The translations under genes were made by a program, and so were the position numbers. Below the pieces are notes generated by a model. It was given only the letters and a program-made list of their open reading frames with translations, had not been told where the DNA came from and did no database searches. DNA of 62,869 nt, filler included, from Diploschistes diacapsis (taxonomy: Eukaryota): NCBI GenBank assembly GCA_023645945.1. It is 14 parts of 14 records of this genome, joined end to end, with 100 filler letters (N's around TTAATTAATTAA, not from the genome) between each part and the next. Parts side by side here need not be neighbours in the genome. Positions count along the whole stretch, not along the records: positions 1 to 21,741 come from JALAIB010000296.1; 13 more parts are not named here. One strand, written 5' to 3'. Of this stretch, positions 1 through 21,446 are shown piece by piece. Each line of letters opens with the position of its first letter. The first letter of the stretch is position 1.

Positions 1-2781
1 GAAGAAGCCAAAGTAGAGACCCCAGAAGCAGAAGAAGATACCTGTGCAGAGGATGTTGTTAGCGCTATTCAATCCAGAGCATCTCCTTAGACCCTGGCCA
101 TTTCCATAAAACGCCGTTCTTTGCAAGATAGTACTTGGCACACCAGTCTTCGTAGAAACAAGCTCTGGAGCCTCTACCAGGTACGGTTGGAAGAGTTTAC
201 TTACCACTCAACATCAGCACAAACGGCTTGTCCCTGAAGATAGTCCAGTCTACCCAGAACACCTTCTGCTGCCTGGGCCTACGCGGGCTGCGTGCGAGTA
301 TGTTGGCGGGTAAAAGAGTCAAAAGGGAAACGAGGGCAAGAACTGGCAGAGTCAGCTTGAGTGCTTCGCCAATAGACAGTACTTTGAAGAAAGCCATCAC
401 GGGCGACTCGACCGCCGCGAGGAGGCAATCATGAAAAGGGATAGACTTACCTCTCATCGCCCAGTCGAACCCCAGGTTTGGAACTTGGTAGGCGATAACG
501 AGGTCGTGGACCACGGCACCTGCTCAAGGAACATAACTGTTTAGCTGAAGCTCACTCTCCAAACACGATTGTTCAATTTTAAACGATCTGCGTCTTCTGG
601 CTCCGCGGATAACAGAACCCTCTTCCGAACCTCAAAACCGGAAAGGAGACAAGGCAAAACATACCACTGATTCCGCCGAGAATGGCCGCCACCATTATCT
701 TCCCCAAATTCCTTGTCCCTACCCCCTTCACAGTCCCCCATAAACTTGCCCCGAACATCAGGCCCATTCCCGTCCCCATAAGTATCCCTTGGACACCAAC
801 GAGCGTGCCAACGCAATTCTGCTGGGTGACATCGACGAAGCTGAGCCCGAGCCAGGCTAGCATAACCAAGGTGCTTCCAAGGGCAAGGGTCTGGCGGAAA
901 TAGCCCCATGACACAAGCGGAGCGGCGACGAGAGGAAGGCTATAAAGAAGGAAGAGCTGGAGACCGCCAGGCCATGAGAGAGCTGAAGGGCTTGTGGCGG
1001 GCAAAGTGTAGCCGTAATACAGCTGGAGCAGTGGGTATGACTGGGAAATGGGTAAGTGGATAAGCAAGGTGGGAAAAAAGGGGCACGAACCATCTTGATT
1101 CCTCTATTAACCCAAAAAATGAATGTATTAGCTATGTCCCAGAAGATAGAGCATAGAACAGAGAGCAGCTGCATGTCGACCAATACAACGGCAAAAAGGC
1201 CACTTACATCACGTTGAAAGCCACCAGTACCGCCGACACTGCCTGTTTCCACACCCTGCCGCCCCGTTCAAGTTGCTCGACGCGGCCATCTTTCTCCAGG
1301 TCCCCCCAGCTTGATCCGCTGTCACGCTGATCGCGCCCCGCACCGACGGAGCTCTGTTCCTCGTCGTCTTCATCGAAGCGGTATGCAAACTCTGGCAATA
1401 CCTGCAGGTAAGCACCATACTTGGACCATGCATCGGAGCTCGGCCCATGTCTGCTCGGTATGGTTGTAGCAGTTGTGGGAGCAGGCTGCGCGTCCACTAC
1501 CAGTGCTGACTTCGGCGGAGGCAGAGGTGCAGGAGGCTCACGGGGAAGCCTGTAGGTCGGCGTTTCTGCACGGGCATGGGCGAAATCATGGACATTGTGC
1601 CCTAACCCTGGAACTTGGAGGCGTTGGCTAGTTAGTTCCTGATTATCCGACTTGTCTTTATCAAACTTCTTTGTAGCTGTTTCTTCCAGCGCCCAACGGG
1701 CTGTCGTCGGGCCAGTGTGCTGCAGATAAGCTGGCTGCAAGCTGGGCAGGGCACCGATTCTGTCCAAGCCCAAGAGCTTGGGGACTTTCCTTCCTGGAGC
1801 GAGGCTTGGCTCTCTGCTTGCTCCCCCGCTATTGCTGTCGCTTGTGGCAGAGGTTTGGTATGTCTCTCTGAGAGCTGCTGGGCCATAGTGGATCGACTGC
1901 CATGCTTTCTTTGTTCTCATTCTCTTGGGCTTGTCAGACCGAGCTCCGATTTTGGTTTCCGAATGTTCGCTCGGCAGCTCTGGAGCCTCGCTGTTTGTCT
2001 TCCCAAGGTGACAGGCCTGGGCGACTTCTTGCTCGGTTATGCCCTCGCACACATCATTGCACAAGAAACAAGGAGCATGTTCGGGGGGCTCGCGCTCCTT
2101 GAGGCGATGGTATCTCTGGGACGGCACTGCCGGAAGCGCAGTTCTCGCCTGCGCACCGTGAACCGGAGCAGTCTTTGATCGATGGAGGGCAGCGACTGCG
2201 GGGCTGTCCGCATCCATCTCAAAAGACTGGGAGCTACGGCGGTTTGAAAACGAGAGCCGGCCTGGTCTGCGTAGAAAAGACGGATCTCGGTTGTCGACAG
2301 CCTCTTGTGTTTCAGCTCGTTGCTTTCCCTTTGCATTGATTTCGGGCCCCGGTTCTGTGAAATCCTTGCTTTGCAGCGATGGCGGAAACGCCAGTGGAGG
2401 AAGCACAACGCCTGGCAGTTGCTCTCGCAGGAACTGGTTACTTGGTTGTGGTCCAGGTACAAGGCGAGAGCTCCCTGCCTGTGACGTGGGATAACGAGCT
2501 GTGACGGTACCTAGCAGTCGTCGAGCCTTGCCAGTAATGCTATGGTCGATGACAGCGTCCTGCATAGGCTGTTCTGCGCGTGGTGAGGCCCAAAGAGGGT
2601 CTCTGGCCTTCCCCTTAGGTCTGTGATCATGGAATGTGGCTCCATAGTAGGCTTCGGGGCTATTGTTGAGCTCAGATGAGTCTGCCTGTGATAAACATTG
2701 TGTACTCGGGACGCTGGGGACGAGGAAGCGGTCGCTTCGGTAGCTTGATGGCTCACGTTCTCTCGTGTTATCCGCTGCCAT
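1..2781 (-). CDS. MFS monocarboxylate-transporter-like (MCT/Mch family) protein with long disordered N-terminus; multi-exon, 3' end runs off the contig
   Basis: Exons inferred from GT-AG and branch sites: 2781-1208, 1103-1091 (13 nt), 1040-665, 519-451, 381 to about 204, and about 42 to <1. Spliced peptides read AFNVIGIKMSYPLLQLYY, SWPGGLQLFL, QGILMGTGMGLMF, LGFDWAMRV, VDWTIFRDKPF and GIFFCFWGLYFGFF, matching fungal MCT-family helices. Confidence 0.8.
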
Positions 2782-3272
2782 GAAGGGTTAGCTATTACGA
2801 GGTCAAAGACAACGGAAGATGGCATGAAGAGGCGAGGTGGATACTGTATTCCTTTGGTAAAGATGGAAAGACAAGAAGGAAGTGGAAGAGAGGACGGTGG
2901 TCGATCTTATTGCAGTCAAATGAAATCACAAGACGAGGTGCGAGCGATGGCTATGAGTAACCGATAAGAACTCCTCTAGCGGTAGTTTCCGTATTCTGCA
3001 TCATGACATGATGATGTGGTCAAAGGCTCCGCCAATATTCGTGGAAGCTTGAATCATTTCATGTATCAAGCAATAACAACAGAGATTCCGAGAAGCCTGC
3101 TTAGCATGTAGTGCTTCTTGTATTGCGTGCCGTGAGGTGGCTCTTCAACGTACAAGATAGAGGCCTGATGACTCAGGTGAAGAGCATCACTTGCCTCTTT
3201 TGATTCAATATAGCCGTATCTATCCATTCTCCACCAAGGAATGACCGGTAAACTAGGTTCGTGACAGCTAGA

Positions 3273-3531
3273 GAGTCGAGTCACCGTGTGTAGTATGCTG
3301 CAGCCAAACATCCTTGAGTAGCGATATCGACACTTCATCATGTAGCTCTCTCGATGCTATCTTCCAAATCTAGGACAGGTCCCATCTTCAAAGGATTCAG
3401 TGCGGAGGAGAAATCCGAACGACCGGTCAAAGGAGTCAAGTCATCGTGTGTAGTATGCCGCACCCACCCAAGGACCCCGAGTAACGACAGCAACACTCCA
3501 TCACGTAGCTCTCTCGACGCTATCTTCCAAA
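3273..3531. repeat. Diverged local direct duplication of about 97 bp (3273-3368 and 3433-3531)
   Basis: Both copies read GAGTCRAGTCAYCGTGTGTAGTATGC...ACACTYCATCAYGTAGCTCTCTCGAYGCTATCTTCCAAA. Confidence 0.85.
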
Positions 3532-4508
3532 CTCAAAAGGTCTCAATTCCACAGAAAGCCAGCACCCAGAAGAACATGGAACGACAAGCCAAGGAAAACC
3601 ACCAAGAATCCTGCTATTGCAGCTACCATCCTGAGCACAACAATCCTACCTACACTCCACAACGAAACGAGATTTGGAAGAGCCTCCAACAGCCTCCTCT
3701 TTCTATTCGGGCCTGGCTGGCAAAAGCACACGCACGAATGCTCTTTCGAACCATGGGCTCGCAAACGTTCAATAGACTTGGAGTTGAAGCTCGAAGCGTT
3801 CAAGTTATCCACAAGGCGTCGGTGTCGATGTCGGTGCAATTACGCGGAACCGGACCAACAGCCCTCATGTTCCAGGAATATCCCAGGAATGGGAAACTGC
3901 ACGGACTAAAAGTCTGTTCTGCAAACTCTTGGAGGAAGCTACGAGGTTTGGGTTAACCGGTCTGCCTGTAGATTACGATGCTCAACAAACCTGTTTCTGC
4001 CATTTCAGACCGACATAAAGAGCTCGGAAGAAGATTCGGACCAGTTACGAAAACAACTCTGAAAGTTCTGGGGGGAGAGCTTGAAGGAAGCTCCGACCTA
4101 TTTTGTACTTGATCTCAAGCATTCCTACGCACGGGCACAAAGTGGTGGAAGAGGTGTCTGGCGTGCAAATTATTCTTTAATATCACCTGGGGTGGTAGGT
4201 AGTCTGTGCGCCTGTCATCTTCAACGCCGTGAACTCGGAACCCGTCGAATTAGATAATTATGCTCCCGCGACATGAAGGCTTCGATTCCAAGTTGCGTGC
4301 TATATGTAGCATGCAAATACACCCCAGGCCCCAGACATGGCCAGCGTAAATTCACGGCGGTCTGGGTAGCCAGAAATCTATAAAACTTTAGACGCTATAA
4401 AAAATGACATTGCGGGGTCGCGTCGACCGAGTCCGCGCGGGGAAGACCCCTTGCTCCATGATCCAGAAGCTCCTCCTCGATACTGTACAGCAGAACAGTG
4501 ACATGGCC

Positions 4509-5930
4509 CTATTTCTCTGCGGTCTCCGTCTTCTCCTTTGCCTCGGCAGTTAGCCAGTCGTAGAATAGGTGCGCAAAGGCATCTGCTGGGTAGTCCACCA
4601 AGCGGTGGAAGACTTCGCCCACGCCGATGGTCATGATCAGACAGACGAAGAAGCAGGCTACGTTTGCGGCGGTGGTTGAGGCGCCGTTGCCCTGGGTCAG
4701 CCGCATGAAGAGCTTGATGCCCACCACGTAGATGATCCAGCTCTGTGTCAGGAACCAACCTGTGAGGGGAGGGGGGGGGGGAAAGGTTAGCAAAGGGTTT
4801 TTCGGGCCATCGGATACTGGAAACTCACTCAGTGACCGCTTGCCGAGGTAAATCAGCACTGGATTTCTGAAGATCGTTTGGAGGAAGTCGAACATCTCAA
4901 AGAGCACCCAGAAGCCAAGGATGAAGAGATAGTTGTCGTCTCTGGCTTGCGGCTCGCTCGGGTCAACGTCGATGTGCAGCTCGGTGTTGGCATACAAGTC
5001 GGTGTGGTACATGAGCTCGTCCAGCACCATGCCCGGCTTCCATGCGGTCCAGAGATACTGCATCGTCAACCCTGCGAGCATGACGAAAACCGCCGGTACC
5101 CAGGCGGGGAGGCGGAAGGCGACAAAAGGTAGAGGAATGCCCCGCTTCGCCCTGGCTTTGAAGTCCATGTGCATGACCATATCCGCGAACACAAGCCCCG
5201 TCACGGTGAACCATGCCCACGATTGCACCCACCAGGCCGTGAGCACGAAGGGGACCGCCATCTTGACGCGCCACGAGGGCCGGGTGTATGGAACGATCAA
5301 CATGAGGATGAAGACGGTAAAGCTTTGCTGGTAGATAAGATTGATGATCCATAGCATCTGAGACGGAAAGGCGTAGTTGCCGGACTGCGCGAAAAACAAT
5401 CCCGTAATCCAAAAGAGATGGTACACAGAGTTGAAGTAGACAAGGGCATTGCGGAGGAAATAAGGCGTAGCGAATGCGATGTTGTTCGTGAACGTCTTGA
5501 AGTCGTCAATGTAAGCTGTTCCTAGGGAAGCGAATGCGGTGGTGATGATGGCCAGCGACACTGCGACTGGGATGCTCAATCGAATACCTCGGCGAACGAC
5601 GGCGCTGGCGATTACGCTTCTGGTCGGGTTCGTAAAGAAGGTTATGGCCAGGCTGCGCGCTGACAGGATGATGAAGAACGAGTATATCAGAGTCCCGTTC
5701 CAGAACAGGACCGACAGCGTCTTTCGAAAGACGATCTGCCATCCGGGCCCGTCCACGCTTATTGTTGCATCCTTGACCGTGTTTGGAGCGAATGTGATCA
5801 GGAAGGTCCAGAGAAAGCTCTCGATGACCAAGAGCCCTCGAAATCCCAAGAGATACTCCTGGCCCTCGACGGGCGGCCATTGCTTCTTCTTGACGAAGTT
5901 GGTGATCTTTTCAGCGCTCATTTTCTCCAT
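4509..5930 (-). CDS. Acyltransferase-3 (OafA-like) polytopic membrane protein
   Basis: ATG at 5930 (MEKMSAEK). In-frame 69-nt intron at 4828-4760 (GTGAGT...GCTAAC...CAG). Motifs YLLGFRG, RRGIRLSIP, LWII, GLVFADM and YLGKRSLS are typical of fungal AT3 proteins, with many hydrophobic helices. Confidence 0.8.
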   Translation of the reverse strand: MEKMSAEKITNFVKKKQWPPVEGQEYLLGFRGLLVIESFLWTFLITFAPNTVKDATISVDGPGWQIVFRKTLSVLFWNGTLIYSFFIILSARSLAITFFTNPTRSVIASAVVRRGIRLSIPVAVSLAIITTAFASLGTAYIDDFKTFTNNIAFATPYFLRNALVYFNSVYHLFWITGLFFAQSGNYAFPSQMLWIINLIYQQSFTVFILMLIVPYTRPSWRVKMAVPFVLTAWWVQSWAWFTVTGLVFADMVMHMDFKARAKRGIPLPFVAFRLPAWVPAVFVMLAGLTMQYLWTAWKPGMVLDELMYHTDLYANTELHIDVDPSEPQARDDNYLFILGFWVLFEMFDFLQTIFRNPVLIYLGKRSLSEFPVSDGPKNPLLTFPPPPPLTGWFLTQSWIIYVVGIKLFMRLTQGNGASTTAANVACFFVCLIMTIGVGEVFHRLVDYPADAFAHLFYDWLTAEAKEKTETAEK

Positions 5931-8900
5931 GCTGGAAGCTTCAGCTCGTGGTGAAAGCAAGGCTTGTTGAAGTGCAAAAAGTGGGCAAGTGAAAGGCGCT
6001 GAAGTTGCAGCAAGTAACAGAGCTGGCGCCGCAGCAGCTAAAAAAATCCAAAAGGAATGCTCCAGTGAATTCAGTGGATTCAGATGAACCAGGTAAGGAA
6101 AGGACACTCAATTGCGATGATGCAGCTAGAAAACCATGCGATCAGCAATACGCTGAACCACCTGCTGCTGCTGAAGGGCATGGAACAGGGCAGGCCTGGA
6201 TGCTTCTCGAGAAGCAGTCAGATTTTACCAATCGTAGGCTCTTGGCATATGCTACCTAGAAGTAGATACCGTACTAGTACTAGTAGCGTGTACGGATATA
6301 CTGCAGCGCGTCTCACTCCCCATTACTAGCCTATTAGGTAAGATTGACCCATCTCATTGTACCAAAAACCGCGACATTTGCTAAGCTCATCCGGCCCATC
6401 CCATGCAACTCCTCCTCCATGTCTGGAGAGAAAGACGATCCGCGCTGGGCCAATACGAACGCTCCGGCACCGACCTCTCTCCGATCATACTGGAGCTAGT
6501 ACATGTGAGTACTGTCATGTCTCAGATAGAAGCATGGCATCATGATGATTATTGAACCTCGTTCGCTGTTTGTTTGATGAGCGAGATATACATAGTACCT
6601 GGTTAAGCACAGGGAACCTCGGTATGCTGTTTACCGGCCAACACGGATCCAAAGTCCCGTATTCATCCCCTTTCTCCGATGACGCAACTCAGTCTACGTG
6701 TGTCGTCGAAACAGCGGTTTTGGTTTGCTGCTTCGTTAAGCATCAAGGTTTGGAGAGACCCGGGATACGATGCCACTGACGCACAAACGCACAAGGTATG
6801 TATGTATGAGCTGTAAGTGGTTCACAAAAAGTTTGCGGAGAAGAGGTAGAAGAGCAACAACACGTGAGCGAATGATGCAGATTTCCCCGCGATAAAAGAT
6901 GGGCAAATGAAAATCCGTATATGCATGCACGCATCCCACTTTGGGACGAAAGAAAGAAAGATAAAAATAAAATTTAAAAAATGGTACCAGCTCATAAGTC
7001 ACGACACGAGAGTAGTAAAAGCTTGGTCGTTTTGTTTCAATGGAGGAAATAAAAAGAAGAGCGCTAGTGTTTGGTATGAAACAGCGCTTGTAAAAAAGAT
7101 ACAATGTGGCTTAGCTCTCTCGGTTGAGGCTTTGTTTTAGCCTGCCCGAGTCCCGCCTTGTTCAGCGAGCGGTTCTTGCAAGTAATGCTCCAGGGGAAAA
7201 TTCGAAATTTTCCTACACCGTTCCTTTCCATCACCCAAGGGCTCCCTCAGGCTTCCATGGAATGAATCATGTTCACATAATACAATCTCAAAGGGGAACT
7301 TAAGCCACAAGAATAATCTTAACATGATACAACTTCGAGTGCATGGACTCTTCAATACCCGCCGTAATAGGCCGTCTCTTTCCAATTGGGGGGTTCTCCC
7401 CAGCCTGTCAGCTTCCCATGAGTTACTCCACCCCAGCGCATCTACTGGAAGCTGAAAAGTGCAAGCGGCAACTTCCTCGTCACTCAAGTAGATTACTTTG
7501 TATTGGACTGAGACAAGACCCATCATTGACCCGCCGACAAGCTTTTGGGCGAGACATTGCTCGAACGCCCAAAGCATGCCCAAAGGGTTAAGCCTAGCTG
7601 TACCCGTCCCCGATCCAGCCCGGTCCTGGCCATAACTCGTCCCAAAGCGTCACTTGCGCAGAGGCTTAGCTCAAGTGGCGAATGCTTGACATGTTCAGCG
7701 CAAAGTCTACTTGCCATTTTGCTGCAGGGCCCGAAGCTTTACAGTGAAGCATTGTACTAACCCTTGGCGAAGTTCTTGTACCCGACACCAAAACATTCTG
7801 ATTATCTGCAAAGGATAAGAGTCTAGGTGAATGGAGTTGGACACGGAAATGGGATACAGATATGTTTCCTAACTCTTTGAGCAAAATGAGCAATAGGAAG
7901 AGGATAACAGTGGTAAGGATCACGGTAGTGAGTGGTGTCTACCGCTTGTTCTGTAGAACGTCGGCAAAGCAAGAACAACTTCGCGCAATTTGCAAAACTC
8001 GGCATGGCGGCCACGAGGGCCCAATTGGTCGCTGGAGCTGGACGACGCTTTCCTTGCGACGGATCACCCAAGTTGCACGAGATGTTGTGGCGAATGTCAC
8101 GAAAACTGTTCGTGATAGTTTTGAATCACGATATGACTCCCACCGTCTTCGTGGTGCAGGTTGTCCTGGGAATTGGCGAATGAGTTTTCTGTGATGCCGT
8201 GAAATTATCGATTAAGTTGACTCGATATTGTATGCATCATCCCTGGTCAAGGACCCTCCCCGTATTTTATTTGGATGAAGCTCATGAACACGATTCTTGT
8301 GCAAGGAAGGACCGAGTCCGTTCTTAGGTGTAGTTCACGCTATGGAGCTGCTTCGCCTTGAGCAAAAGCAAACGCAAAAGCCGCGAGCCGCGGTGTTTGC
8401 TATCTTTGCGTAGCTACCGTCTTGCTTGAAGTAGGAACGAGCGGCCGGAGTCCTGCAGGCAGTCGTCAGGAGACGGAGATGGCTGATCGCTTAGTTGGAC
8501 AATCAAGGTTACTGCAGTACAGGACGAGTATGAAATGCTGAGATGTAAGCATGCGCATATCTGGGATTTGCATTCGACCTTTCCAAGTCTGTAAAGAACT
8601 GCGATGCAATGCTGCATTGTCTGACCTACCATGAAGATAACTCTCCATTATTTTCATCAACAGCATCCACTGTCGGCAATTGCACACACAAGCCGCGGCT
8701 CCCACACCTTGTGCAACGGGCTTGCTCTATCATTCAGATTGTTGAAGTGAGTGCTATTATCGGTGTGAATGGTTGTGGAGCTCGAGCGACGAATAACTGT
8801 AGGGCTAGATAATATATTGCAGTATCACTTGTACGTCATTGGCACGTCTAATCGATAAACCGATCAGCCCGATGCCGCCATTATAGTGGAACATAGGAAA

Positions 8901-10212
8901 ACCCCTCATTGGGTTTACTGTCTGAGTACCAGATGCTGTTGCATGAGTGCAGACCATTTCTTCACTACATGAGCGTCAAGTAGCTTCTATGTACAGGAAT
9001 CCATGTTGCGGGTGCAAAGACCGCATCCGCTAGGATATAGCGATTCGGGGTATTAGAACGGGAGCCGTCTGTTAAGGTGTGTACCCTGAATGCCCAAAAA
9101 ACCAAAAAAAAACAGGAGCTCAGATAACGCAAGGCAGATTACGCTGTCGTGCAGCTGCTGGAGAGGGCCGGGCTGCAACGGTCTTTGCCAGCTGGTGGCT
9201 CAGAATAGTATCTGCCTTGTCGCTGCATGCAGCGATAAAGCTGCAATACGAAGGTATCCTTGCTGCAAAGGCATCTCGATATTAGCAAGCCGCAGCTCGA
9301 AGGAAGTTTGGAAGAACCAGAGAGCCAGGGAGCTTCCTTCGCTTGCCCTCGGTTTGTGAGGGAGGAGAGTGTGGATTTTTCTTTTGGGACAGCGGGGGAT
9401 ATCTGGGCAATCAGGCTTTTGAGGGGTGGGACTGCAAGTCTGCAGCTGCAACTGATGGCGACAGTTGACCCTTCCCCTCCGCTTTTTGTCGAAGAACGGG
9501 GTGTTTGGCAGTCATGTAGAAGGTAGATGGGCCGACAAGTCCATGCGCGAGAATTCGGGCAGCAAGGGTCATGAGCTCCACCGTTATCACGAAGATATGG
9601 TTTGTCACTTAGGACCAGAACGGGGGTTTTGATCTCCGCAAGACTGGCTGGCTGTGTCCGGGCTGCCATGCAAAAGCTGTCGTGGGTGCATCGTAGGGGG
9701 TTCTATCTTTCTTCGAAGGGATTATTGGAAAGCGCCCCCGTCTCTCTACCGCCACACCTGAGCCACAGCCGTCAGCCACAGCCACAGCCACGTATTGCAT
9801 GTGGCCTATTAATTCCTTCCTACAAACCCTTGACAAGAAAGCTAATGTTATTTTTGTCAAATATTATTCGGATGATTATTACACCATGCCTGCATACATC
9901 TTGACGTGGGGAGGGGGGCGCGCGCGCGCTTGTCCTCAAGGTCTGAGATTTTGATTTTTTTTTTGTTTGTTAAACACTAAAAATTACGTATGCTAGCTTG
10001 CTGTAGTAGTGGCTCGCTTTGGGTATCAAAATATTACTGTGCTCTAGATGCCATGGATATTCACCAAGTACCCCCCCTCTTTACAACTGTCGCCCGTATT
10101 TCCTATTTGGTGAATGCAGATTGCAGACACAACGCCGAATCCGGATGCCAGCCAGTCTATTGGTCGTCAGAACAAACAAGCGATTAGGCCGTAAAGATGT
10201 GCGCATGCGCGA

Positions 10213-11758
10213 CTATGAGCGAGCTGTGGGATTCCACGAAGAGTAGCGAATGATCTGTCGTGCATGGCCGTAAAGACCAATGATGGCGAAGAGTGAGAGG
10301 TAGAAGGGATAGAAGATGGAGAATTGGATGATCATCCAGCGTGATACGAATTCCGACTTGACCATGTTGGTGATCCACAGGGTGAGAATCAAGCAAACGG
10401 TGCTGGCATACCCGTTAGCGCTCCGTGAGCTGGCTTGGCTGGCTGGCTGGGGCATACCTTATTATAAAAAACCACGCGGAGACAGGATAGGTAAAGAAAA
10501 GCAGGTGAGCGAGTGAGGTTCCCGAATCGGGAAAGCGTAGGATAACTATAGCAACAACCAAGAGCGTGAATTGAGATACGAGGTAATAACTGATTTCGCG
10601 GATGCAAAGTAGGGTAAAGATGCCGAAACGTGTGACGAAGCCGCGCTGACCATCAATGGGCTTGTTCCAGGTCATGATAATGTGCTTGATGCTGGCTTGC
10701 GTCCAGCCTTGGGTCCATCGCAGACGCTGTTTCCAGAACGACTTCCAGGTGGTGGGGGCCAGTTCGTACGACACGACGTTGGAGTCGTGCACCGTCTTGC
10801 AATTCTTGGCAACGGCCCTGAGAGCAGAGTCGATATCCTCCGTCAGCATATCGCCGTCCATCTTCATCTCTCGGATCAATGGTGCGCGCCAGTAACCGTT
10901 GGAACCGGTGAACAGTCCAAAACCCCACATGGCGGCGCGCCCGGGGTGAGATACGGCGTAAATCTTATCGAATTCAACCGCAATCATTGATGCCAGCCAG
11001 GATTCATGGGTGTTGAAGATTACACAGCGCCCTTGAACAATATCAATTTTCTTGTTGGAGATCATCCTCTCAATCGCCCAGCGCGGTCCATAAGGGTGAG
11101 GGTAATGATCGCAATCGTAAATGGCAATGACATCTGCACCTGTGTTTAGGGTGAAAAAATAGTTTAGGTTGTCGGCCTTGGAGGTAGAGCCTGGCACTTT
11201 GATGACTCTCAGATTGGCATGTTTGGCAGCAAGATTCCAGAGCTCCGTCTCCAATGGCTCGATGGGTTTCGGGGTGTTGTATACCACGTTGATCCTGATC
11301 TTGTCTTTGGGATACACGATCTTGTCGAGCAGGTAGAGTGCCCGATCCAGTATGATGTCCTTCTCGTTGGGAAGGTAGGCAACGATGATGAGATCGAGGA
11401 CGAGAAGCTTGTCATCGGGCGTGGGAAATACCCAATTCTTTTCTTGAGCCTTCTGCACCGCTTTCCTCGTCTCGCGAACGGGACCCAAAGCGACGACTGC
11501 TTCTACCACTGTTGAGCCTGCAATGTAGAAGTTGGAGGTCATGCAGATGAACCAAAAGATCGCGAGTGCTCCCTCAGTGACCACCAGATAGAGGCAGATG
11601 GAAACGAAGACGTATGTGACGACGAGCAAAAAGGGCGTCCAATCCCACATCCAGTCCGAAGCTATGGCAACCCAATTTTTAATCCTGCCCAAGCCAGAGT
11701 TAACGCTGCTGCTGTCAGGCGTGGGCCCGCAGGCGGTGCCGGCTTCTAGTGAAGACAT
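10213..11758 (-). CDS. Processive family 2 glycosyltransferase (cellulose-synthase-like, not chitin synthase)
   Basis: One intron at 10457-10403 (GTATGC...GCTAAC...CAG). Motifs YLPNE, KADNLN, YDCDH (DxD), TGSNG, LTEDID and QRLRW (QxxRW). Two N-terminal and several C-terminal TM segments; about 496 aa. Confidence 0.9.
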
Positions 11759-14183
11759 TGTTTTCGTAGCAGGTTTGCAGCCCTTGTCGAAACTTCAGAA
11801 GCGAGCGTGAAAAGACCGTAAGGAGAGATAAACGGTGAACGAAGGTCAACAAAGACCTTTTCCACAGGACTGGATGAACGAAAGTAGAAGAAGTGTCGAC
11901 CGAGAAAGAGGGCCTATGGACTGCGAGCCGGATCTCAAGATAGATTTTGAAAGCCGGAGAGCTCACAGAAGCCTGACGCCGGGACAACTCGAAGAAGGAA
12001 AAAGACGAGACAGATCAACGCGTATTATTTAGGAAGGACCAGGACAGGGAAGGGGCAAGGGGAAGGGAAGACCTAGCAGCAGGCCCTTGATGCGGTGGCC
12101 GATTACCACTTTCCATCATCATCGACCAATTCATCCTTATCCTTTCATTCTTCTGGCCCACATTAGAGCGACTAGTTGTTACGGTACTCCGTATTAGCCA
12201 TTCGTTAGGTTATTGCAAAGGGGGGGGGGGGGGTGAGAAATAAGCGCTGGCGGCCATTCCTTGCTAGCTCTGATGCCAGTGCCAGTGCCAGTGCCAGTGT
12301 GCCAGTGCGATGAAATGATTGACAGGCACAAGATAGACTAGGTAGATTTGCGCTAAGGTAACATACGAAAGTAATACAGGGCTTCTAAAATAAAACAGCT
12401 AAACTAATCTTTCCCTTCCTGTGTAAGTAAGCCAAAAGGGGTATACTACTTACTCCGTAGTCAATACTGAGCTATCGAACTAGCGCAAGGGGAAGGTCAT
12501 TGCTGAAGGCACAGCAGCTCAATTAATCTCCTTTACACGGAGGAGAGATAGCAGAGATAATAGAGAGAGCATGGAGAGCAAAGAGAGCAATAGATGTGGT
12601 TGGTTGCTGCAGGTTTCGGGGCCTTGCTGTCGTTGGCGGCGATTATTCCGATCAGTCCAAACCTCTCTGCATCTCCAAGAGGGGGAGAGCAGCGATCAGG
12701 AGACGGTTTCTTACATTGCATTGCAGCCTCTCCGTCCTACAACCAATGCAGACCCTTTCTAGTCATCGCAAAGGTGGTCATGTAGGATAGATGGGTAGGA
12801 GTGTTTCTCGCTGCAGCGACAACAAACACCGCAGGATGGATTCAGCGGAAATTTGTATGAGTGGTGGTAATGACCAGGGTCAGTCAGAAGATACGAAGCA
12901 CGTTAAAACATGGCGCCACCCGCTTGAAGCCCCGGAAGGAGCCTCACGACATCTTTCCTCCCAACTGAGATGCACATCCGGTGTAGCTTTAGGAGTTGCA
13001 GCCGTTGAACTTCTGGCATAAAAAAGAACATATGCAAGGGTTTCTTTCCCCAACATTACGCACAACCTTATGCACTTTTTACACCCACTCTGCACCTACT
13101 ACGCGTTCTTACACTTTTTACCATCAATACGCGTGCCATTCATGTGCGCACCGATCGGCTGGAATGGCTTAATGAATACGCATGATCAAGCCTTAATTAT
13201 ACGCAGGGCCCGATGCGAATGGGATGAGCTAAGCAAGTCTAAAACAATGACTGTATTATGCCCACGCGACAAAGTAGACAAAGTACTTGGCGTTTCACTA
13301 GCGTCTGTGTGCTATTATCGTCTGTCTGTCTATTCGAAGCATGACCCTTCTTTGCCACCACTAATTAATTACACTTAGCCAGGCCAAGTACTGTCTGGTA
13401 CAAGCTAGTAAGATTTCTAGATTTCAAGTGGCTACGCTAGTACCTGGCTCGCCGGTAATTTACTGAAAACGCCTGGAAGACTAGCTAGTTCCCTGGGATC
13501 TACGTACCGGTACAACTGTACACAGCCAAAAGCCAAAAGCCAAAAGCCAAAAACACATCACTCTGATTTCCCACTGCTGCTGGGCTGCTACTCGCTAGCT
13601 CGCCCGCGTAGCATGGCTAGTAGGTACAAGATCAACTTACTTAGAGCCACACCATGTGGGATCCAGCCCCAGAACCACGAAAAAGACTTCCTGCAGCCCA
13701 GTAGCAAGTAAGCGGTAGTCTAGGGAAAGTACGCCGAATTTTCCTTATTCGGTCATTACCCAAAATCGATCTTGATTGCCTTCATCTCGCCTTCCGAGCT
13801 TGACTGGCGAATGCCTCTCTCTCCATCTTCTTTTCTCTCATCCAACCGCACTGATTTTCGAGAGCCTTGCGGATCCAGCCGCCGATCTATTCCAGTGACT
13901 TATTTTCTTCCCTGTTATTATTCCCTTATCTCTGCTTCCTACTGGGCCAAACGTACGCTCACGGACACTCTCTCTTATGTTCTGATCTTCTGTATGGGCA
14001 GTGTGGCCTCTGGAAGTACGGCAATCAATCGTTCAAAACCACATTCGCAGCATGCCTGGACCATCTCACTCAACCTAGCGAGAAGCCTGCCTACCTCCCC
14101 GTCGTCGTCCTTGCCCTCGACCTTATTTCCTTACATTGCTGGCGTTCTTTTCTTTTCCGCCCTCGCCTATCATACCAAGCGGA
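11759..14183. promoter_or_regulatory. Divergent intergenic region shared by the GT2 and GH16-AT3 genes
   Basis: Head-to-head start codons. Contains (GCCAGT)n at about 12274-12308, (CCAAAAG)n at about 13526-13551, TACTCCGTA motifs and three GCTAGTA copies. Confidence 0.55.
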
Positions 14184-17100
14184 ATGGGTGTACGGTCGAT
14201 TGTCGTCGCTCTTGGCCTGGCTGGCCTAGCCGCTGGCGCGACGGACGTTTCGAGTTGTTCGTGCGGTTTCTACGATGCCGAACAGGACAATCTTTGGACG
14301 GATTCAATTGTCGTTTACTTCAATGAGTCCAACAACATACCGGAGGATATTTTCTGGAGGGAGAATTGGAGGAATACCTACGAGCAGGGCTGGAACGCTC
14401 AGTTCGTCACGGGTTCTGCTACGAACAATTCGTGGATTGGCAACTCGACCTCTCAGTCAACGTCGGCCCAGAAGTCGCTCCAACTCTTCGTCGAACCTTC
14501 AACAGCCCAACATCTCGTTGTTGGGGGTGGTGTTAGAACGCAGCGGCAAGACATCCAGTATGGAAGCTTCCGAGCTATGATGAAAGGTCCGGCACGATAC
14601 GCTGGCGGCACTTCTTTGACTATGGAGCTCGCCTACAATTTAACGCAGCAAGTCAGTCTCAATATCATGAACACGGCCGAGCCAGATACTGCTTGGATCA
14701 GCACCCTCATAAACCATGAGTTCCCTAACCGCTACCTGGGAGTCAACTTGACAAATATCACGAACCAAGCCTTTGGTGCGAACCCTATCACGGATCCGTG
14801 GGGTTATAATATCATGAGGCTGGACTGGACACCAACTGTGATGAACTACTGGCTCGGCAATAACCTCAGTAGGTCAGTGACAGGTGCATGCGATGATGGC
14901 TCAGCAAGGCCTACCACGCCATCGCCCTTGACACTGAAGCATTGGTCCGATGGAAACGAATATGCCATGGAAGGACCTCCTTGGCACAATGAGAGCGAAG
15001 CAAACATTCTTTATGTCAGGGCATTCTTCAACACCTCCTCGCTGACAAGCGATGAGGAGCAAGCGTTCAATTCGAGGTGCAATATCAAAAGTGCCTGTTC
15101 CACAGATGACCTGGAGCTTCGTGGCTCCACCCCTTACCCAGAATCTGCAACACAGTACTGGCAGCAGCAATCCGGACAGTATACTATGCGATGGCCCGCT
15201 GTCGGAATCGGATCCTTTGGCCTTCTAATTTCTCTGTTGACAATTATCAACGTAACAATCCGCCGCTTCGTTCTTCCTGACGCCCCCAAGAAGCACGAGC
15301 CCGAACCCTCATCGACCGAATCAGAAGACAGCAATTCCACCAGGGGGGAAGGGTCATTCATTTCCGGAGGCACGACTCCGCTGGCCGCGCACAGGAGTCC
15401 TTACGCTTCTGGCTTCGTCACTCCAGCTACATCGGGGGCAAGGACCCTCGTGCCTGGCACTCCCAACAACCTGACCAGACCGTCCTCGATCAGGGACATA
15501 CCCCCAATACCCGAACAGTTTCGAGAATCTTCAATGGCTGGCTCTTCGGGAGCAGCAACTCCTCGAAATATTACTCGGCCTTCGTCCGCCAGAGGCGATG
15601 GGGAATTCCCGCCAATTCAACATGGATCGCACGACAATCTCGACAGGGCGCGGTTCGCTGAAATGACGATGGGTGAGGGTCCTACGTCGCCTGGACTCAT
15701 GTCTGGGCCCGAGACTCCATTCTTCGGTACCTCAGTACCCACCACACCATTCTCTCCTTCGTTTGGGGCTGGTGCAAGAAATTTGTCATTCCTTGGAAGA
15801 CCCGCAGAGCAAATTACCTACGGTCCCGCCGTTCCGGTTGGCGACACCGGTGATGAGGAAATCGTTCGAGGTGGGGTGGTCGTTGAGCCCAACGGCAAGG
15901 GCAAGAACGTTGCCATCAGCACTTCAGCTGCTCCAAAGGACGCCACGGTAGGGCGTGGAAAGCCCGCGGGTCAACGAGTCGACTATCTGGCCGGTCTGCT
16001 TGCAATCTGTTCAACATTTGTGTCGTTGACGCATTATATGCTTACGTTCGTTCCGGCCGTTATCGAGCCCGGCGCGTTTACCCACTATCCTAGCGAAAAC
16101 TTGGCGAGGAAGACTGTAGGATGGTTCTTCTTCAACGAAGCTTGGGTTGTTTTGTTCTTCACCACCTCCTCACGTTTCCTGACCACAAAGTATCTTCGAA
16201 CAGGCGACTTGGGCGTCATTGCGGAGAAAGCCACTGGCAGAACATTCCGTCTTATGATCCCCATTATCGGCGTCATAGTCCTAGAGTACTTCTTGATGGA
16301 CGTTGGTGCGGTGGATTGGTTGCAGTACCTATCTTCCGTGACGTGGTCCACTTGGCCGTACACAGTTGTCTACGACAACTTCGGCGACTTCGTCAGCGAG
16401 ACCCTCGAGTTGATCTATCTCATCCCCAATGGTCGGCCCCAGATCACTTCCAACTACTGCACCGGTGTGCTCTGGACCATTCCCGTGCAGCTTGATGGTT
16501 CGTGGCAGGCCATGCTTGCTGTGATCGTTTTTCGGGAGATCAAGGCACCTTGGAAAAGAATCACGTACTACCTCACCGTCATTGCACTCCACTGGTACGG
16601 TCGTTCCTGGGGCGCGTTTTTCGTTGCCGGTCTCTGCATGGCAGACATGGACGTGACCTACAAGTACAGGAAGTGGTTATTGGCAAGACCTTGGATCTAT
16701 TATCCCGCTTTGAACCTCGTCATTCTCCTCGCACTCGCCGGCCTCGGCAACGATCTTGTGTCCAACTGGATAGGCATCGACTTTCAAATCATCGAGGATG
16801 GGTGGCACATCGACAAGCGTACCGGTCTCGCTAGGATTCAGGCCGGCAATAGCGGCTTTCCGGCATACTACGTACCGAAGCTCAACGGTCTCGTGTTTGC
16901 CATATGCGCCCAACTTCTCGTCGAATGGAGCGCGTGGTTCCAGAAGGTCATTTCCGTGAAGATAGTCCTCTGGCTCTTCCCGCACATTTTCACCATCTAT
17001 CTCTTCCATGGTTTCATCTTCTGGAGCGTGGGCTCCGCGCTCTGCATTTCGCTCTCCTCGGCTGGCGTACCTTATTGGGCCAATTTGCTTCTCGTCGCCA

Positions 17101-17462
17101 TCGTCTGCTACACCGTCCTTTACCTGTCGCTTCCCATCATCACCCCCGTCGTGGAAGCCCTTGGAAAAACCGTCACGAACAGTATCTGGGCCTCGGCCTC
17201 GGAGCAGCCAGCGCCCAAGCGACGGACACTATACCCTTTCCCGGATGACCTCTTCGTGAGCCGTAACCTCGACAACCCCTTCGAAAACGCTTCTGTTATC
17301 GACTCAAGCGCTAGCTCTATCAACTACAAGCCAGGCAAGGGCGGCAAGGGTAGTATGACGACCGCAACAGGATCCAGTGCGAGCTCATTTGCAGAGAAGC
17401 CAACGACTGCGGATGGAAAGGCACCGAACACAACCGTCAGTGACATGGGCATTGCGTTCTAA
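14184..17462 (+). CDS. Fusion protein: signal peptide, GH16-like ectodomain, TM helix, S/T/P-rich linker, C-terminal acyltransferase-3 domain
   Basis: Intronless ORF from ATG 14184 (MGVRSIVVALGLAGLAAGA). CSCGF, RQDIQYGSFRAMMK, RLDWTP, PTTPSPLTLKHWSDGN and GPP mark a fungal GH16 fold. TM WPAVGIGSFGLLISLLTIINV. AT3 motifs RVDYLAGL, GRTFRLMIP, GVLWTIPVQ and GLCMADM. Confidence 0.85.
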   Translation: MGVRSIVVALGLAGLAAGATDVSSCSCGFYDAEQDNLWTDSIVVYFNESNNIPEDIFWRENWRNTYEQGWNAQFVTGSATNNSWIGNSTSQSTSAQKSLQLFVEPSTAQHLVVGGGVRTQRQDIQYGSFRAMMKGPARYAGGTSLTMELAYNLTQQVSLNIMNTAEPDTAWISTLINHEFPNRYLGVNLTNITNQAFGANPITDPWGYNIMRLDWTPTVMNYWLGNNLSRSVTGACDDGSARPTTPSPLTLKHWSDGNEYAMEGPPWHNESEANILYVRAFFNTSSLTSDEEQAFNSRCNIKSACSTDDLELRGSTPYPESATQYWQQQSGQYTMRWPAVGIGSFGLLISLLTIINVTIRRFVLPDAPKKHEPEPSSTESEDSNSTRGEGSFISGGTTPLAAHRSPYASGFVTPATSGARTLVPGTPNNLTRPSSIRDIPPIPEQFRESSMAGSSGAATPRNITRPSSARGDGEFPPIQHGSHDNLDRARFAEMTMGEGPTSPGLMSGPETPFFGTSVPTTPFSPSFGAGARNLSFLGRPAEQITYGPAVPVGDTGDEEIVRGGVVVEPNGKGKNVAISTSAAPKDATVGRGKPAGQRVDYLAGLLAICSTFVSLTHYMLTFVPAVIEPGAFTHYPSENLARKTVGWFFFNEAWVVLFFTTSSRFLTTKYLRTGDLGVIAEKATGRTFRLMIPIIGVIVLEYFLMDVGAVDWLQYLSSVTWSTWPYTVVYDNFGDFVSETLELIYLIPNGRPQITSNYCTGVLWTIPVQLDGSWQAMLAVIVFREIKAPWKRITYYLTVIALHWYGRSWGAFFVAGLCMADMDVTYKYRKWLLARPWIYYPALNLVILLALAGLGNDLVSNWIGIDFQIIEDGWHIDKRTGLARIQAGNSGFPAYYVPKLNGLVFAICAQLLVEWSAWFQKVISVKIVLWLFPHIFTIYLFHGFIFWSVGSALCISLSSAGVPYWANLLLVAIVCYTVLYLSLPIITPVVEALGKTVTNSIWASASEQPAPKRRTLYPFPDDLFVSRNLDNPFENASVIDSSASSINYKPGKGGKGSMTTATGSSASSFAEKPTTADGKAPNTTVSDMGIAF

Positions 17463-18139
17463 CCGCCCCAAAACGAACCACCCCCCACCATTGTTTGAAG
17501 TTTCTACAGAATCATCCCTTCCTTATGTTTTGCTATCCCATCCAATCTATCCATCCCAATAGTGGCTTCCCAAAAACGGCTTTCTCCACTTGTTGATATG
17601 TGGCGAGACATCTAGGGATTGCATTGCACGAGGACGGTAGCGAGAAATTGTGGTTATTTTCTAGTCTTGATCCACATGAAAGAAGGAAACCCAAATGTTC
17701 TAAATAGCTTTGCCACGCCACCACCGTGGGAAAGAAAAGCCTTTCACGGCTATACAGATAGACTTGATATCAAAACGCTGAGGCGTCTAATTAATGATCT
17801 TCTTCGACCAGTCTGTTTCGCATACTCTCGAGGCTGTGACATCGAGAATGTCACGCAAATGCCTGCATGACACATTAGAAACTAGAAGCAAGGTACATGT
17901 AGACTACCGATTGCTGCGGCTTTCTTGGTATTGTAGCACAGCCGACGCGCATGCTTGTGTATACAGCGCCTTCCTCCCACGTCACAGCGGAAGCGGATAT
18001 TACAGTCTCTTAATCTCAACAACTTTGACATACTAACTTTGACATACTCGACATTACATCAAGCCTGCAAGTTTATTTGATATAATTCCCGCTGCCGATT
18101 TGGTTTCCAATCCTACCTCCCGAGGTTCTACTAGCCAGA

Positions 18140-19043
18140 ATGGATACTTTTGCGAAAGCGGCTCAGAATCGCTCTATTCGCACTATCAAGACCGTACGTA
18201 TCCCAAGCGTGAAGCTTTACAAGCAAGCAGACTCGATCGTTTTAAAGCTTCTCAGCACCATGGGACTTCTCTATCTCTTATACTATTTCCAATATTCCAC
18301 TGACACTACTATCTTAGGAGCTGGATTTCCTCCTCGACTCCAACCTCCTTACTCAAAACCAAATTTCCCAGATAACCGCCATCCTCCCCTCCTCCGCCGA
18401 ATCCTCCTATCGGAACGGCAGCGGCGCTACCGACACGACAAGCAACAACTATCCTCCTCCTGCAGTCCGGAACCAATCCAATCTTTCCCACACCGCCACG
18501 TCCCCTCGCCTCAACACTTTCAACACCCTCTCCCTCAATGAAAAGTCCTCCGCCACGCCTCCTCCCCCATCCTACGCTTCCTCCGGCCCACCCTCCATAG
18601 CGACCGCCACATCTCTCTATGCCTATGCCCCCAACGACCCCAACGACCTGGCCCTGCAGCCCAACGACCGCGTCATAATAACCGAGTACGCAAACGCGGA
18701 CTGGGCTCGGGGTCGCAACGAGCGTACTGGACAGGAAGGCATATTTCCACGGAGCTATGTGAACGTAATCGAGGAGAAGAAGGGGAATGCCGGTCCGCCG
18801 CCGTTGCTACCGGTCAGGAACCAGAGCCATGCGCACAGCAGCGGCTATGGCAACATGCCGGTGGAAGTAGCGGGTCAGAGCGGGGCGGGCATGACGGGTC
18901 AGCAGCAGATGCCGGAAGGGGCGGCGGGAGGAAATAGTAAGTTCAACGACCAGGGGAAGAAGTTTGGGAAGAAGCTGGGGAACGCGGCGATATTCGGGGC
19001 GGGGGCTAGTATTGGGGGCAATATTGTTAACAGCATCTTCTGA
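18140..19043 (+). CDS. LSB1: SH3-domain protein of the Lsb1/Pin3 family
   Basis: Exon 1 18140-18193, intron 18194-18317 (GTACGT...CTGAC...TAG), exon 2 starts ELDFLLDS. SH3 ATSLYAYAPNDPNDLALQPNDRV...ADWARG...EGIFPRSYV. Family C-terminus KFGKKLGNAAIFGAGASIGGNIVNSIF. Confidence 0.85.
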
Positions 19044-19859
19044 GGGCCCGTAAGGTGGTGGGGGTGCTGGATGCGCATGATATACTTCGGGGTGAGATGG
19101 GAATCCTATCGCTGCTTGACGCGATGAAGTCAATATGGGCTCGAGCATTCTTATACTACGATGCCTGGGAATGTGTGTCTTTCTGGCGGTGTTGAGCTAT
19201 GAGCTGCGTTAAGGCTGCTGTCTGGGTATTTGATATAGATGGAAAAGACAATTGGAGTTTGGTTGGCACAAGGTATTCCAGAAACACTTGAAGAGCTTTC
19301 AATCAGCGACTAGGATTTCAAACAAATCCCCTCTACTAATGCCGTAGCCCAGGTGGCGCTTCGTTGCAAAGTTGGTAAAGGGTTACATGACGCTACTTTC
19401 ATTATGAGAATCATCATCAAGCTCGTGACACCCAGATGAAAGCCGCCACACATTTATCTATCTCCGCTCGGTTGAATACGTTTTCCTATTCGTCCGTCTC
19501 TGCAGCAAGGAGCCGCTATGCACTTTCTACATGTAACTTAATGATTACAAAGTACCCCACCAAGCAATCGTGAGAGCGGGGCTTCAAACAAGCTTCCTCG
19601 TACCTTTCCCGCTTCTGCAGCGGAATCCAGCGGATTTCCATGGCAAAAGAGGTAGGTGCTAACACGATTCACCACCGCGAACGGGATCCTTCGAGCTTGT
19701 ATGGGGCTGCGTGGATCGGATCCGCAGAGATGACGATATAGGCTAAACGTCTCTTCCACTCTTTTCATACTTTCGACTTTAAAACGCAAAGGCTCTGCTC
19801 CACCTCCTTGGAACCATCTTTTCTCTCATAAAGCTACTATCTCAATCGTATCTCTTGCA

Positions 19860-21051
19860 ATGGCCTCGGAAGACCTTCCAAAGATGCAGTACCGCCATCT
19901 CGGCCGCTCTGGCCTCAAAGTCTCCGTCATCTCCCTCGGAGGCTGGCTAACATACGGTGGACACGTCGGCAATGGTCTGGATATCCCTCCCAGTATAAAG
20001 CCATAACGCTGAGTAGAATGTGTACAGAGGATAGTTATGCTTGCATGAAGGCAGCCTATGATGCTGGCATCAACTTCTTCGACTGTGCCGAGGCGTACTC
20101 CGGAGGAGAGTCGGAAAAGATCATGGGAGAGGCTATCAAACACTACAAGTAACGCCACTCCGAGTCCATTTGAGAGGCCCGGTTCTGATGTCAGGAAGCT
20201 GGAAGCGCAACGACCTCGTAATCTCCACAAAGATTTACTGGGGAAGTGCCTATGGCGACAACCCCGTCAACAACGGCGGCCTTTCGCGGAAACACATTGT
20301 CGAGGGGACGAACCTAGCCCTTAAGCGCCTGCAGCTGGACTACGGTATGCCCCAATCGGCCACCAAACCGCGGACGTGCTAACGCCCAGCAGTCGACCTC
20401 ATCTACGCCCACCGCCCAGACCGCGACACCCCCATGGAAGAAACGGTCCGGGCCTTCAACCACCTCATCGACACGGGCAAGGCCTTCTACTGGGGCACTT
20501 CGGAGTGGAATGCAGACGAGATCTCGGAAGCCTGGCGCGTGGCGGAGCGGTACAACCTGATCGGCCCGCTGATGGAGCAGCCGCACTACAACTACCTGGT
20601 GCGCGACAGGGTCGAGAAGGAGTACCTGGGCCTGATCGAGCGGCACGGGCTGGGCCTGACCATCTTCAGCCCGCTCAAGCAGGGCATCCTGACGGGCAAG
20701 TACAACGACAAGGTGCCGGACGACAGCCGGCTCAGCACGAGCCAGGACAACTTCGCCAAGAACATGAGGGAGAAGTACGGCAACGAGGACTGGCAGAAGC
20801 AGATCCAGCAGGTCAAGGCGCTGGAGCCCGTCGCGGAGAAGCTCGGCTGCGACCTGGCGGCGCTGGCCATGGCGTGGGTCATCCGCAATCCGCACGTGTC
20901 GAGCGCCATCACGGGCGCGTCGAGGCCGGAGCAGGTGGCCAAGAGCGTCAAGGCGCTGGATGTGCTGCCCAAGTTAACGGACGAGGTGATGAAGGAGATT
21001 GACGAGCTGGTTGGGACGAAGCCCGCGTTGCAGCCAAGGAGATTTTTCTAG
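19860..21051 (+). CDS. Aldo-keto reductase, voltage-gated K+ channel beta-subunit-like
   Basis: Introns at 19975-20027, 20149-20198 and 20345-20392. Peptides [58 protein letters not shown] and [12 protein letters not shown]. Confidence 0.93.
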
Positions 21052-21129
21052 ACGAGTGGGCAAAGAAAATAGTCTTTAATAAATTATCTATTATAATTGA
21101 TAAAACTTAAGAAAGATTAAATGTCGTTA

Positions 21130-21374
21130 ACGTGTTTCACCACACAACGGAGCACACCACTAAGCGGAACACTACATTATAATGTAATTGCGCTAGATCG
21201 AGCGCTTCCATATTTAGTTTAGTTTCTAAGTTTTAAACGAGCTTTTGAGCTAAGCCTGTTTCGTACGAAGCCCCACAACCACGAAAGGTGAAAATGTTAA
21301 AGAAATACACTTTACGAAGGTGCAGGGATTTGTGTTCCGCTTTGTGGTGTGTTCCGTTGTGTAGTGAAACACGT
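21130..21374. mobile_element. MITE with Fot1/pogo-type ends, 245 bp
   Basis: Imperfect TIRs of about 43 bp (ACGTGTTTCACYACACAACGGARCACACCACWAAGCGGAACAC), TA on both flanks, no coding capacity. Confidence 0.88.
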
Positions 21375-21446
21375 TAACGTTCTTTAGGATTGATTTATTT
21401 AAGAATTGATTCTATTTTCTTCGGATCGATCTTAACGCCGTCTTGT

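Follow-up and report, generated by a model that had tools for sequence, protein, structure and literature searches.

What product might a predicted processive glycosyltransferase, a glucanase-like domain and two acyltransferase-like domains make together when their genes lie side by side in a fungus? The question is raised by three consecutive genes of Diploschistes diacapsis (GenBank assembly GCA_023645945.1), here called A, B and C, in a stretch of 62,869 nucleotides (the window). All three lie on contig 1, which covers positions 1..21741 and is followed by N spacers. An earlier account drawn from the DNA alone, hereafter the sequence-only reading, had described three consecutive recognisable genes at 4509..17462, and our gene models were recovered at exactly these coordinates. 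Gene A encodes a stand-alone membrane protein of the acyltransferase-3 (AT3) type, and gene B a family 2 glycosyltransferase (GT2). Gene C is transcribed divergently (B on the minus strand, C on the plus strand) and joins a GH16-like extracellular domain to an AT3 domain; this fusion had also been claimed beforehand and agrees with the predicted folds, Pfam scores being below cut-off. The trio is apparently a widely conserved, co-regulated and uncharacterised fungal polysaccharide module.

Homolog searches returned 259 proteins for A, 1767 for B and 269 for C, of which the best 120 of each were listed. Among these matches, the three locus tags are consecutive in Sarea resinae (M1819_002080-82), Monilinia laxa (EYC80_000890-92) and Ciborinia camelliae (NHQ30_009280-82), while the tags of A and C differ by two in Stromatinia, Lachnellula, Cryomyces, Lecanora and Phialocephala, and by three in Rasamsonia. 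The Botrytis cinerea counterparts of A and C are BCIN_06g03780 and BCIN_06g03800, respectively; BCIN_06g03790, which lies between them and is a GT2 by annotation and position, is taken as the B ortholog, and the strands (-,-,+) are those of the window. A scan of metagenome DNA gave 132 B relatives, the best 80 of which were kept and represent 52 lineages at 90% nucleotide identity. Twenty of these loci, from 14 of the 52 lineages, have an adequate flank (at least 7.5 kb upstream and at least 4 kb downstream), the other 60 being too short for full judgement. A and both domains of C are present in 20 of the 20, so that the linkage is not a matter of chance, and none of the 80 loci has 3 kb on both sides with a partner missing. 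The 14 trio lineages are split over three gene orders (9, 4 and 1). No flanking gene of the window is common to trio loci elsewhere, and open reading frames (ORFs) of at least 30 aa in gaps and flanks gave no tblastn match among the 80 fungal-type loci. A fourth recurrent gene was sought beside the trio and none was found beyond close relatives; likewise, no deacetylase or small IcaD/PgaD-like partner recurs in the fungal loci, in a comparison that left aside ORFs under 70 aa and that very short or intron-split genes could escape. An apparent second copy of the module was observed in Lecanora helva (ACLMJK_005593/94 and 006368/70) and in Claussenomyces (M1818_005624/25 and 006987).

Expression values for the three Botrytis genes, given below in the order A/B/C, were taken from supplementary table rows of published studies; these and the other papers cited here are drawn on in part. 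With biocontrol metabolites the log2 fold changes are -5.61/-5.65/-5.05, against +5.31 for the neighbour 03810, 03770 having no row (PMC11409189). A light pulse gives -0.94/-0.91/-0.78, with all three genes in the same module of a weighted gene co-expression network analysis (WGCNA) and no rows for the flanking genes (PMC10218500), and at 29 °C all three are up (+4.0/+6.4/+2.1; PMC10470532). At the protein level, A and C co-vary in the pellet fraction (-7.1/-7.4, +1.5/+1.1 and -4.2/-2.8, columns being interpreted from their headers), and the GT2 protein 03790 was not found among the pellet-fraction rows listed (PMC10470532). The sequence-only reading had made its case depend on linkage and co-expression. 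Orthologs do prove to be linked, with consecutive tags in several classes, and those of Botrytis shift together in three published transcriptomes, C departing from its partners at 37 °C. Synteny in three gene orders, consecutive tags and co-regulation thus bear out the claim of a dedicated pathway, and we consider it very likely that A, B and C form one functional module.

The best named match of B is a protein of Thelotrema lepadinum (87% identity, also 496 aa). As in processive GT2 synthases, B carries DxD (D215/D217), TED (306) and QRLRW (344) together with transmembrane (TM) segments; alignments of 27 and of 69 orthologs show little or no variation in its catalytic motifs, QxxRW and TED being invariant. 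Of the D,D,D,QxxRW signature announced beforehand, DxD, TED and QxxRW therefore stand, while the first D does not: no DD motif is present and the position reads YNTP (160), YN occurring also in 80 of 80 bacterial relatives. BcsA is the sole solved structure matched in sequence (E 3e-6), and the signature motifs of the BcsA/CrdS/BgsA beta-glucan synthases are replaced in B by KADN, QGRC and WNPTAR. The best NCBIfam match is PgaC/IcaA, at 61 bits (61 vs 48 bits) where the cut-off of 422 is not reached. This score and the short C-terminus favor an Ica-like enzyme; TM helices are few. A paralogous clade with a dead GT2 was also observed, comprising P0541 (Teratosphaeria nubilosa), P0498/P0631 (Neophaeotheca triangularis), P0522, P0546, P0548, P0510 and P0489. 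The gene model of P0522 extends to include a GH16 domain; that of P0631, 1544 aa long, begins with the same dead GT2.

A scan of bacterial genomes identified 116 relatives of B, the best 80 of which (32-44% identity, mostly from cyanobacteria and actinobacteria) were kept. An AT3 gene from one cyanobacterial family is directly adjacent on the same strand in 30 of the 80 loci, and 20 of these 30 AT3s match [DE]xxR-x10-H; another, different AT3 lies downstream of the B relative in two actinobacterial loci. A Patulibacter gene (L001:121-4242) is a GT2-BcsB fusion and BcsB adjoins the GT2 in locus L016, while in Deltaproteobacteria (L009, L010, L012, L033 and L051) the GT2 stands beside TPR-PgaA barrel and SGNH genes, in a small exopolysaccharide system. 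A set of 29 hand-picked, mostly long relatives, out of 150 representatives, includes two GT2-AT3 fusions, three GT2-BcsB fusions and one TPR-PgaA barrel. These adjacent or fused AT3, BcsB and exporter partners place the B family among synthase-dependent, often acylated exopolysaccharide systems. In this context the analogy with periplasmic glucans and OpgC, drawn in the sequence-only reading, fits less well than the ica/pga and bcs synthase-dependent systems. The cyanobacterial AT3 and GT2 pair (L018-L076, 30 loci, for example L020:6370-9329) occurs with either gene first and has a TPR gene close by in 13 loci, and no description of its product was found in the literature. A FastTree tree of 80 rows has a branch, with support 97, that sets the fungal sequences together with a chytrid and four further rows apart from the rest; the tree is midpoint-rooted without an outgroup, and hence no direction of transfer is claimed. 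The chytrid sequence, from Rhizophlyctis rosea (P0487), is an intact member of the B GT2 family at the base of the fungal side.

The predicted model of C (predicted local distance difference test score (pLDDT) 74.6, predicted template modelling score (pTM) 0.72) comprises a signal peptide, a beta-sandwich ectodomain, a TM helix, a disordered linker and ten helices. Pfam scores stay under the curated cut-offs for both GH16 (16.1 vs 22 bits) and AT3 (23.5 vs 31 bits), and A has no Pfam match, an AT3 match being obtained in 3 of 31 aligned A homologs; family assignments therefore rest on predicted folds. The predicted ectodomain is a GH16 beta-jelly-roll (Z 20.3, root-mean-square deviation (rmsd) 2.6, 202 residues aligned). 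Its top Foldseek matches are Bacillus lichenases, which are beta-1,3-1,4-glucanases (E 5e-9), and a phmmer search of the PDB with the ectodomain gave no match. The catalytic strand of active GH16 enzymes reads ExDxE or ExDxxE. In the register taken from strand order in the predicted model, ExDxE is absent from the catalytic-strand region in all 114 C homologs, the strand reading QVSLN in C; a profile search gave weak GH16 matches whose HMMER register is unlike the model-based one, and ExDxE appears in neither. An ExDxE/ExDxxE-like pattern occurs elsewhere within aa 25-300 in 5 of 114 homologs. There are nine N-glycosylation sequons in aa 20-335 of C. With its catalytic residues missing, the domain is probably neither a glucanase nor a transglycosylase and is most probably a binding module: the glucanase-fold partner foreseen earlier is confirmed as a fold, but probably not as an enzyme. 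The lichenase-like folds, together with the BcsB fusions of B relatives, favor a beta-glucan product.

The predicted model of A (pLDDT 88.7) superposes on HGSNAT (Z 15.2, rmsd 4.3, 287 aligned) and on GWT1 (Z 10.5), the next unrelated fold scoring 5.2, and the C-terminal part of C, again as a predicted structure, superposes on HGSNAT (Z 14.8, rmsd 4.7, 293 aligned); both have the 10-TM TmAT fold. The two AT3 domains are paralogous (BLASTP 22%, E 8e-7; profile-profile 98.4%, E 4e-15 over 389 columns), which, with the HGSNAT-like fold, upholds the earlier description of A as a stand-alone AT3 related to that of C. AT3 enzymes require R-x10-H in TM helix 1 (TMH1) and RxxR in TMH3, and both the Arg and the His of R-x10-H are reported to be essential in bacterial AT3s (PMC9833829; PMC12423673). 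We counted motifs in 114 C homologs and 120 A homologs, or fewer where a position was not aligned. RxxR is kept, at 113 and 114 of 114 in C and 120 and 96 of 120 in A. The TMH2 motif FxxxxG is lost (Gly in 0 of 114 C and 1 of 120 A homologs), its position being taken in both families by S-x-R with a nearly invariant Arg. As for SxxxY in TMH9, C has the Tyr without the Ser, and A has the Ser with Phe replacing Tyr in 68 of 83. Tyr939 and the following His942 of C occur in 114 of 114 homologs where A has Phe and Gln, and a nearly invariant E-x3-H in an outer loop is common to A and C. Since C retains the outer-face His, the Tyr and the following His, it is the likelier of the two to be an enzyme, and A the likelier to be an accessory subunit.

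We tentatively propose that A, B and C work as one machine in the plasma membrane or secretory pathway to make a surface or matrix polysaccharide that is O-acylated and is most likely a neutral beta-glucan. B would use a cytosolic UDP-sugar, extend the chain processively and pass it through its own membrane channel, as its motifs suggest. Anchored on the outer side by a single TM helix, in a BcsB-like topology, the GH16 domain of C may bind and guide the chain as it emerges but would not cleave it. Next, the AT3 domain of C would move an acyl group from cytosolic acyl-coenzyme A (acyl-CoA) to the chain on the outer face, presumably by way of its His and Tyr. A would act as an obligatory accessory subunit or as a second transferase with altered chemistry. 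For the product taken by itself, we lean slightly towards a glucose polymer. The sequence-only reading had a pathway that makes and O-acylates a beta-glucan: its dedicated pathway stands, whereas O-acylation and beta-glucan must be held less firmly than it implied, the AT3 motifs being incomplete and the GH16 domain lacking its catalytic residues.

Several observations weigh against this proposal. The TMH1 motif DxxR-x10-H is divided between the paralogs, C having the Arg in 0 of 114 and the His in 111 of 114 homologs and A the Arg in 116 of 119 and the His in 0 of 120, in a register consistent with alignments to the cyanobacterial AT3s. The 30 cyanobacterial AT3 loci are mutually related, not independent, and come without a chance control. 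Moreover, profile-profile comparison reveals no significant resemblance of their AT3s to A or C (14.6% and 0.8%), and a search of the 80 bacterial loci with profiles of fungal A and C gave no ORF match at E <1; with no detectable AT3 relationship, we do not claim a bacterial origin of the fungal AT3s together with B. When the C ectodomain is compared with lichenase, agarase, porphyranase and Crh, the Z scores differ by no more than about 2 units, and the fold comparison thus does not fix the sugar. The dead-GT2 clade has lost AYLPNE, DxD and QxxRW and kept its length and TM parts, which indicates that the partners can outlast the activity of B and supports the alternatives below. At 37 °C, A (+2.3) and B (+2.0) rise in Botrytis but C falls (-1.8), against strict coupling (PMC10470532). 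Finally, no polymer, mutant or enzyme assay for the trio was found in the literature. Under the proposed machine, the invariant, family-specific Arg in TMH2 may stand in for the lost TMH1 Arg, and A may be an ancient duplicate that kept the CoA-side arginines and not the catalytic-side His and Tyr. GWT1 is an active TmAT enzyme without parts of these motifs (PMC12423673). As an enzyme can thus work without the full motif, acylation by the trio stays plausible, and we rate it as rather likely.

The same machine might instead make an amino-sugar or mixed polymer resembling poly-N-acetylglucosamine (PNAG), acylated as by IcaC of the staphylococcal ica system. PgaC/IcaA being the best NCBIfam match of B, the end of B at the gating loop as in IcaA/PgaC, and the TPR-PgaA barrel in one group of bacterial relatives all point this way, and BcsB-like partners serve non-glucose polymers too, for example in Listeria Pss. 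However, B scores far below the PgaC/IcaA cut-off, the ectodomain of C has a glucanase-type fold, and the fungal loci yielded no recurrent deacetylase or IcaD/PgaD-like partner within the size limits given above; we regard such a product as unlikely. We judge it equally unlikely that the polymer is unmodified, both AT3-fold domains being non-catalytic membrane scaffolds that complete or regulate the B channel. It is true that both fail R-x10-H and FxxxxG, that A also lacks the TMH9 Tyr, that B has few TM helices and that the GH16 domain is dead as well, which would make repurposing common in the trio. Yet C keeps its outer-face His, Tyr939, His942 and RxxR at the frequencies given above, the outer-loop E-x3-H is nearly invariant in both proteins, and GWT1 is active without parts of the motifs (PMC12423673).

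The acceptor may also be a secretory-pathway glycolipid, a short oligosaccharide or a protein glycan and not a wall or matrix polymer. HGSNAT and GWT1, the nearest solved folds, transfer acyl groups to luminal glycans or lipids, and the dead-GT2 lineage suggests that the AT3s can act on something not made by B; but the invariance of QxxRW and TED, as in processive synthases, and the fusion of bacterial relatives to BcsB or to exporters of the TPR-barrel kind, as is usual in systems for long exopolysaccharides, make this quite improbable. Least probable, to the point of being very doubtful, is that B is a fungal GT2 already characterised, such as the mixed-linkage glucan synthase TFT1/CelA, or that the genes are neighbors by inheritance only. 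Lichenases do head the fold list of the C ectodomain, and TFT1/CelA of Aspergillus is, like B, a processive GT2 of filamentous ascomycetes. TFT1 is longer, however, with a switch motif at residues 548-558, past the 496 aa of B, and works alone in K. phaffii, no partner genes being described in the portion of the text covered (bioRxiv 10.64898/2026.09.17.752320). The switch pattern is found in none of the 120 listed B homologs, 49 of which are confirmed full length, and the identity of B with TFT1 was rejected on length and on the missing motif, the two being set apart without direct alignment. The trio, in addition, outlasts rearrangement while flanking genes are not shared.

Among known systems, the icaADBC/pgaABCD loci have a short GT2 with TM segments at both ends that terminates at the gating loop, and the ica cluster holds a stand-alone AT3, IcaC. 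The trio resembles them in both respects and in its best NCBIfam match, but differs in that it has a pair of divergent AT3s, of which one is joined to a dead GH16, that its B scores far below the family cut-off and that, within the size limits given above, neither a deacetylase nor an IcaD-like gene was found. With BcsA-BcsB it shares the layout of C (signal peptide, carbohydrate-binding-type ectodomain, one TM helix) and the only solved match of B; unlike BcsA, B has no PilZ and has KAG, QxPH and FxVTxK altered, and the system has a GH16-fold ectodomain in place of BcsB and an AT3-fold modifier. Like the AT3/TmAT enzymes OafB, OatA, HGSNAT, GWT1 and CASD1, the trio has the 10-TM fold and RxxR, and fusion to an extracytoplasmic domain is also found in AT3-SGNH proteins; the trio differs in splitting R-x10-H between paralogs, in replacing FxxxxG with S-x-R and in the fused domain, a dead GH16 placed N-terminally with a TM helix of its own. 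The Aspergillus galactosaminogalactan (GAG) cluster is a clustered, co-regulated exopolysaccharide pathway built from GT4, CE18 and GH114/135 and involving deacetylation; the trio is likewise clustered and co-regulated, but uses unrelated families and, presumably, acylation. The disabled GH16 and the split AT3 motif are the distinctive features of the trio within synthase-plus-AT3 systems.

No characterisation of the trio, including under Botrytis or Sclerotinia tags, was found in the full-text literature searched, which leaves out most subscription papers, so that a description elsewhere is possible; the earlier statement that none was known agrees with this. The only main-text mention found is of BCIN_06g03790 as a differentially expressed gene, and the trio cluster is not mentioned in the portions covered of PMC4059230 and PMC7140844. 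Lasallia pustulata makes pustulan, a partly acetylated, beta-1,6-linked glucan (PMC7389562), and a C ortholog is present in this species among the matches listed, a coincidence that we offer as a lead. At its most specific, the trio would be the machine for O-acylated fungal beta-glucans such as pustulan, with a GT2 route common to bacterial exopolysaccharide systems, a disabled GH16 replacing BcsB, and a new acylation chemistry carried out by a pair of AT3 paralogs whose halves of R-x10-H complement each other; in this full form the idea is speculative and rather improbable.

Table 1. Gene models and domain coordinates of the trio in the D. diacapsis window
Feature	Position	Strand	Description
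Gene A	5930..4509	-	One intron; 450 aa spliced; stand-alone AT3/TmAT-fold membrane protein
Gene A exon 1	4829..5930	-	Carries TMH1 Arg R31 and TMH3 RxxR; without TMH1 His
Gene A intron	4760..4828	-	69 nt, GT..AG, in frame without stop; not present at that column in annotated homologs
Gene A exon 2	4509..4759	-	Final two TM helices and stop; Phe at TMH9 Tyr position, Gln at next His position
Gene B	11758..10213	-	One intron; 496 aa spliced; GT2 synthase
Gene B exon 1	10458..11758	-	AYLPNE127, YNTP160, KADN194, DCD215, QGRC242, TED306, QRLRW344; TM helices at N- and C-terminal ends
Gene B intron	10403..10457	-	55 nt; removal gives 496 aa, junction agrees with P0123
Gene B exon 2	10213..10402	-	Last membrane segment; terminal WNPTAR at gating-loop position is the protein end
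B-C intergenic region	11759..14183	.	Divergent, 2.4 kb, without conserved ORF
Gene C	14184..17462	+	Single exon; 1092 aa
Gene C signal peptide	14184..14240	+	aa 1-19, hydrophobic; from hydropathy
Gene C GH16-fold extracellular domain	14256..15083	+	aa about 25-300; strand Q156-V-S158-L-N160
Gene C TM helix, single	15192..15272	+	aa 337-363
Gene C linker	15291..15956	+	aa 370-591; Ser/Pro/Thr-rich, disordered (pLDDT <50), unconserved; putatively cytoplasmic from topology
Gene C AT3/TmAT domain	15975..17204	+	aa 598-1007; H617, R686/R689, Y939, H942, H634/E638, E871/H875 kept; without TMH1 Arg

The region between B and C (Table 1) may serve as a shared promoter. To the left of the trio (window 197-2787) lie a fragment of a membrane protein and an ORF of 526 aa with no Pfam match, and to the right (18318-21051) an SH3 protein and an aldo/keto reductase. 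The remainder of the window (21742-62869) consists of separate pieces joined by regular N spacers. It contains a Tc1/mariner-type transposase remnant at 23651-24367 (weak Pfam match), an APH-type phosphotransferase at 42527-44977 (Pfam) and a 1719-aa ORF at 27972-33131 that resembles a Rim15/Cek1-type kinase.

Gene-level knowledge of fungal wall and matrix polysaccharide pathways covers few cases. The trio is intact in lichen fungi, in the mycorrhizal Cenococcum, in rock and black fungi and in the crop pathogens Botrytis, Sclerotinia and Alternaria, and its expression in Botrytis responds strongly to stress, light and temperature. BCIN_06g03780/03790/03800 thus provide a named entry to the identity of the polymer and to the question of whether fungi O-acylate wall glucans at the membrane, a question that bears on immune masking, adhesion and the formation of the lichen matrix. 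The split AT3 motif and the dead GH16 domain are, in turn, relevant to the mechanism of acyltransferases.

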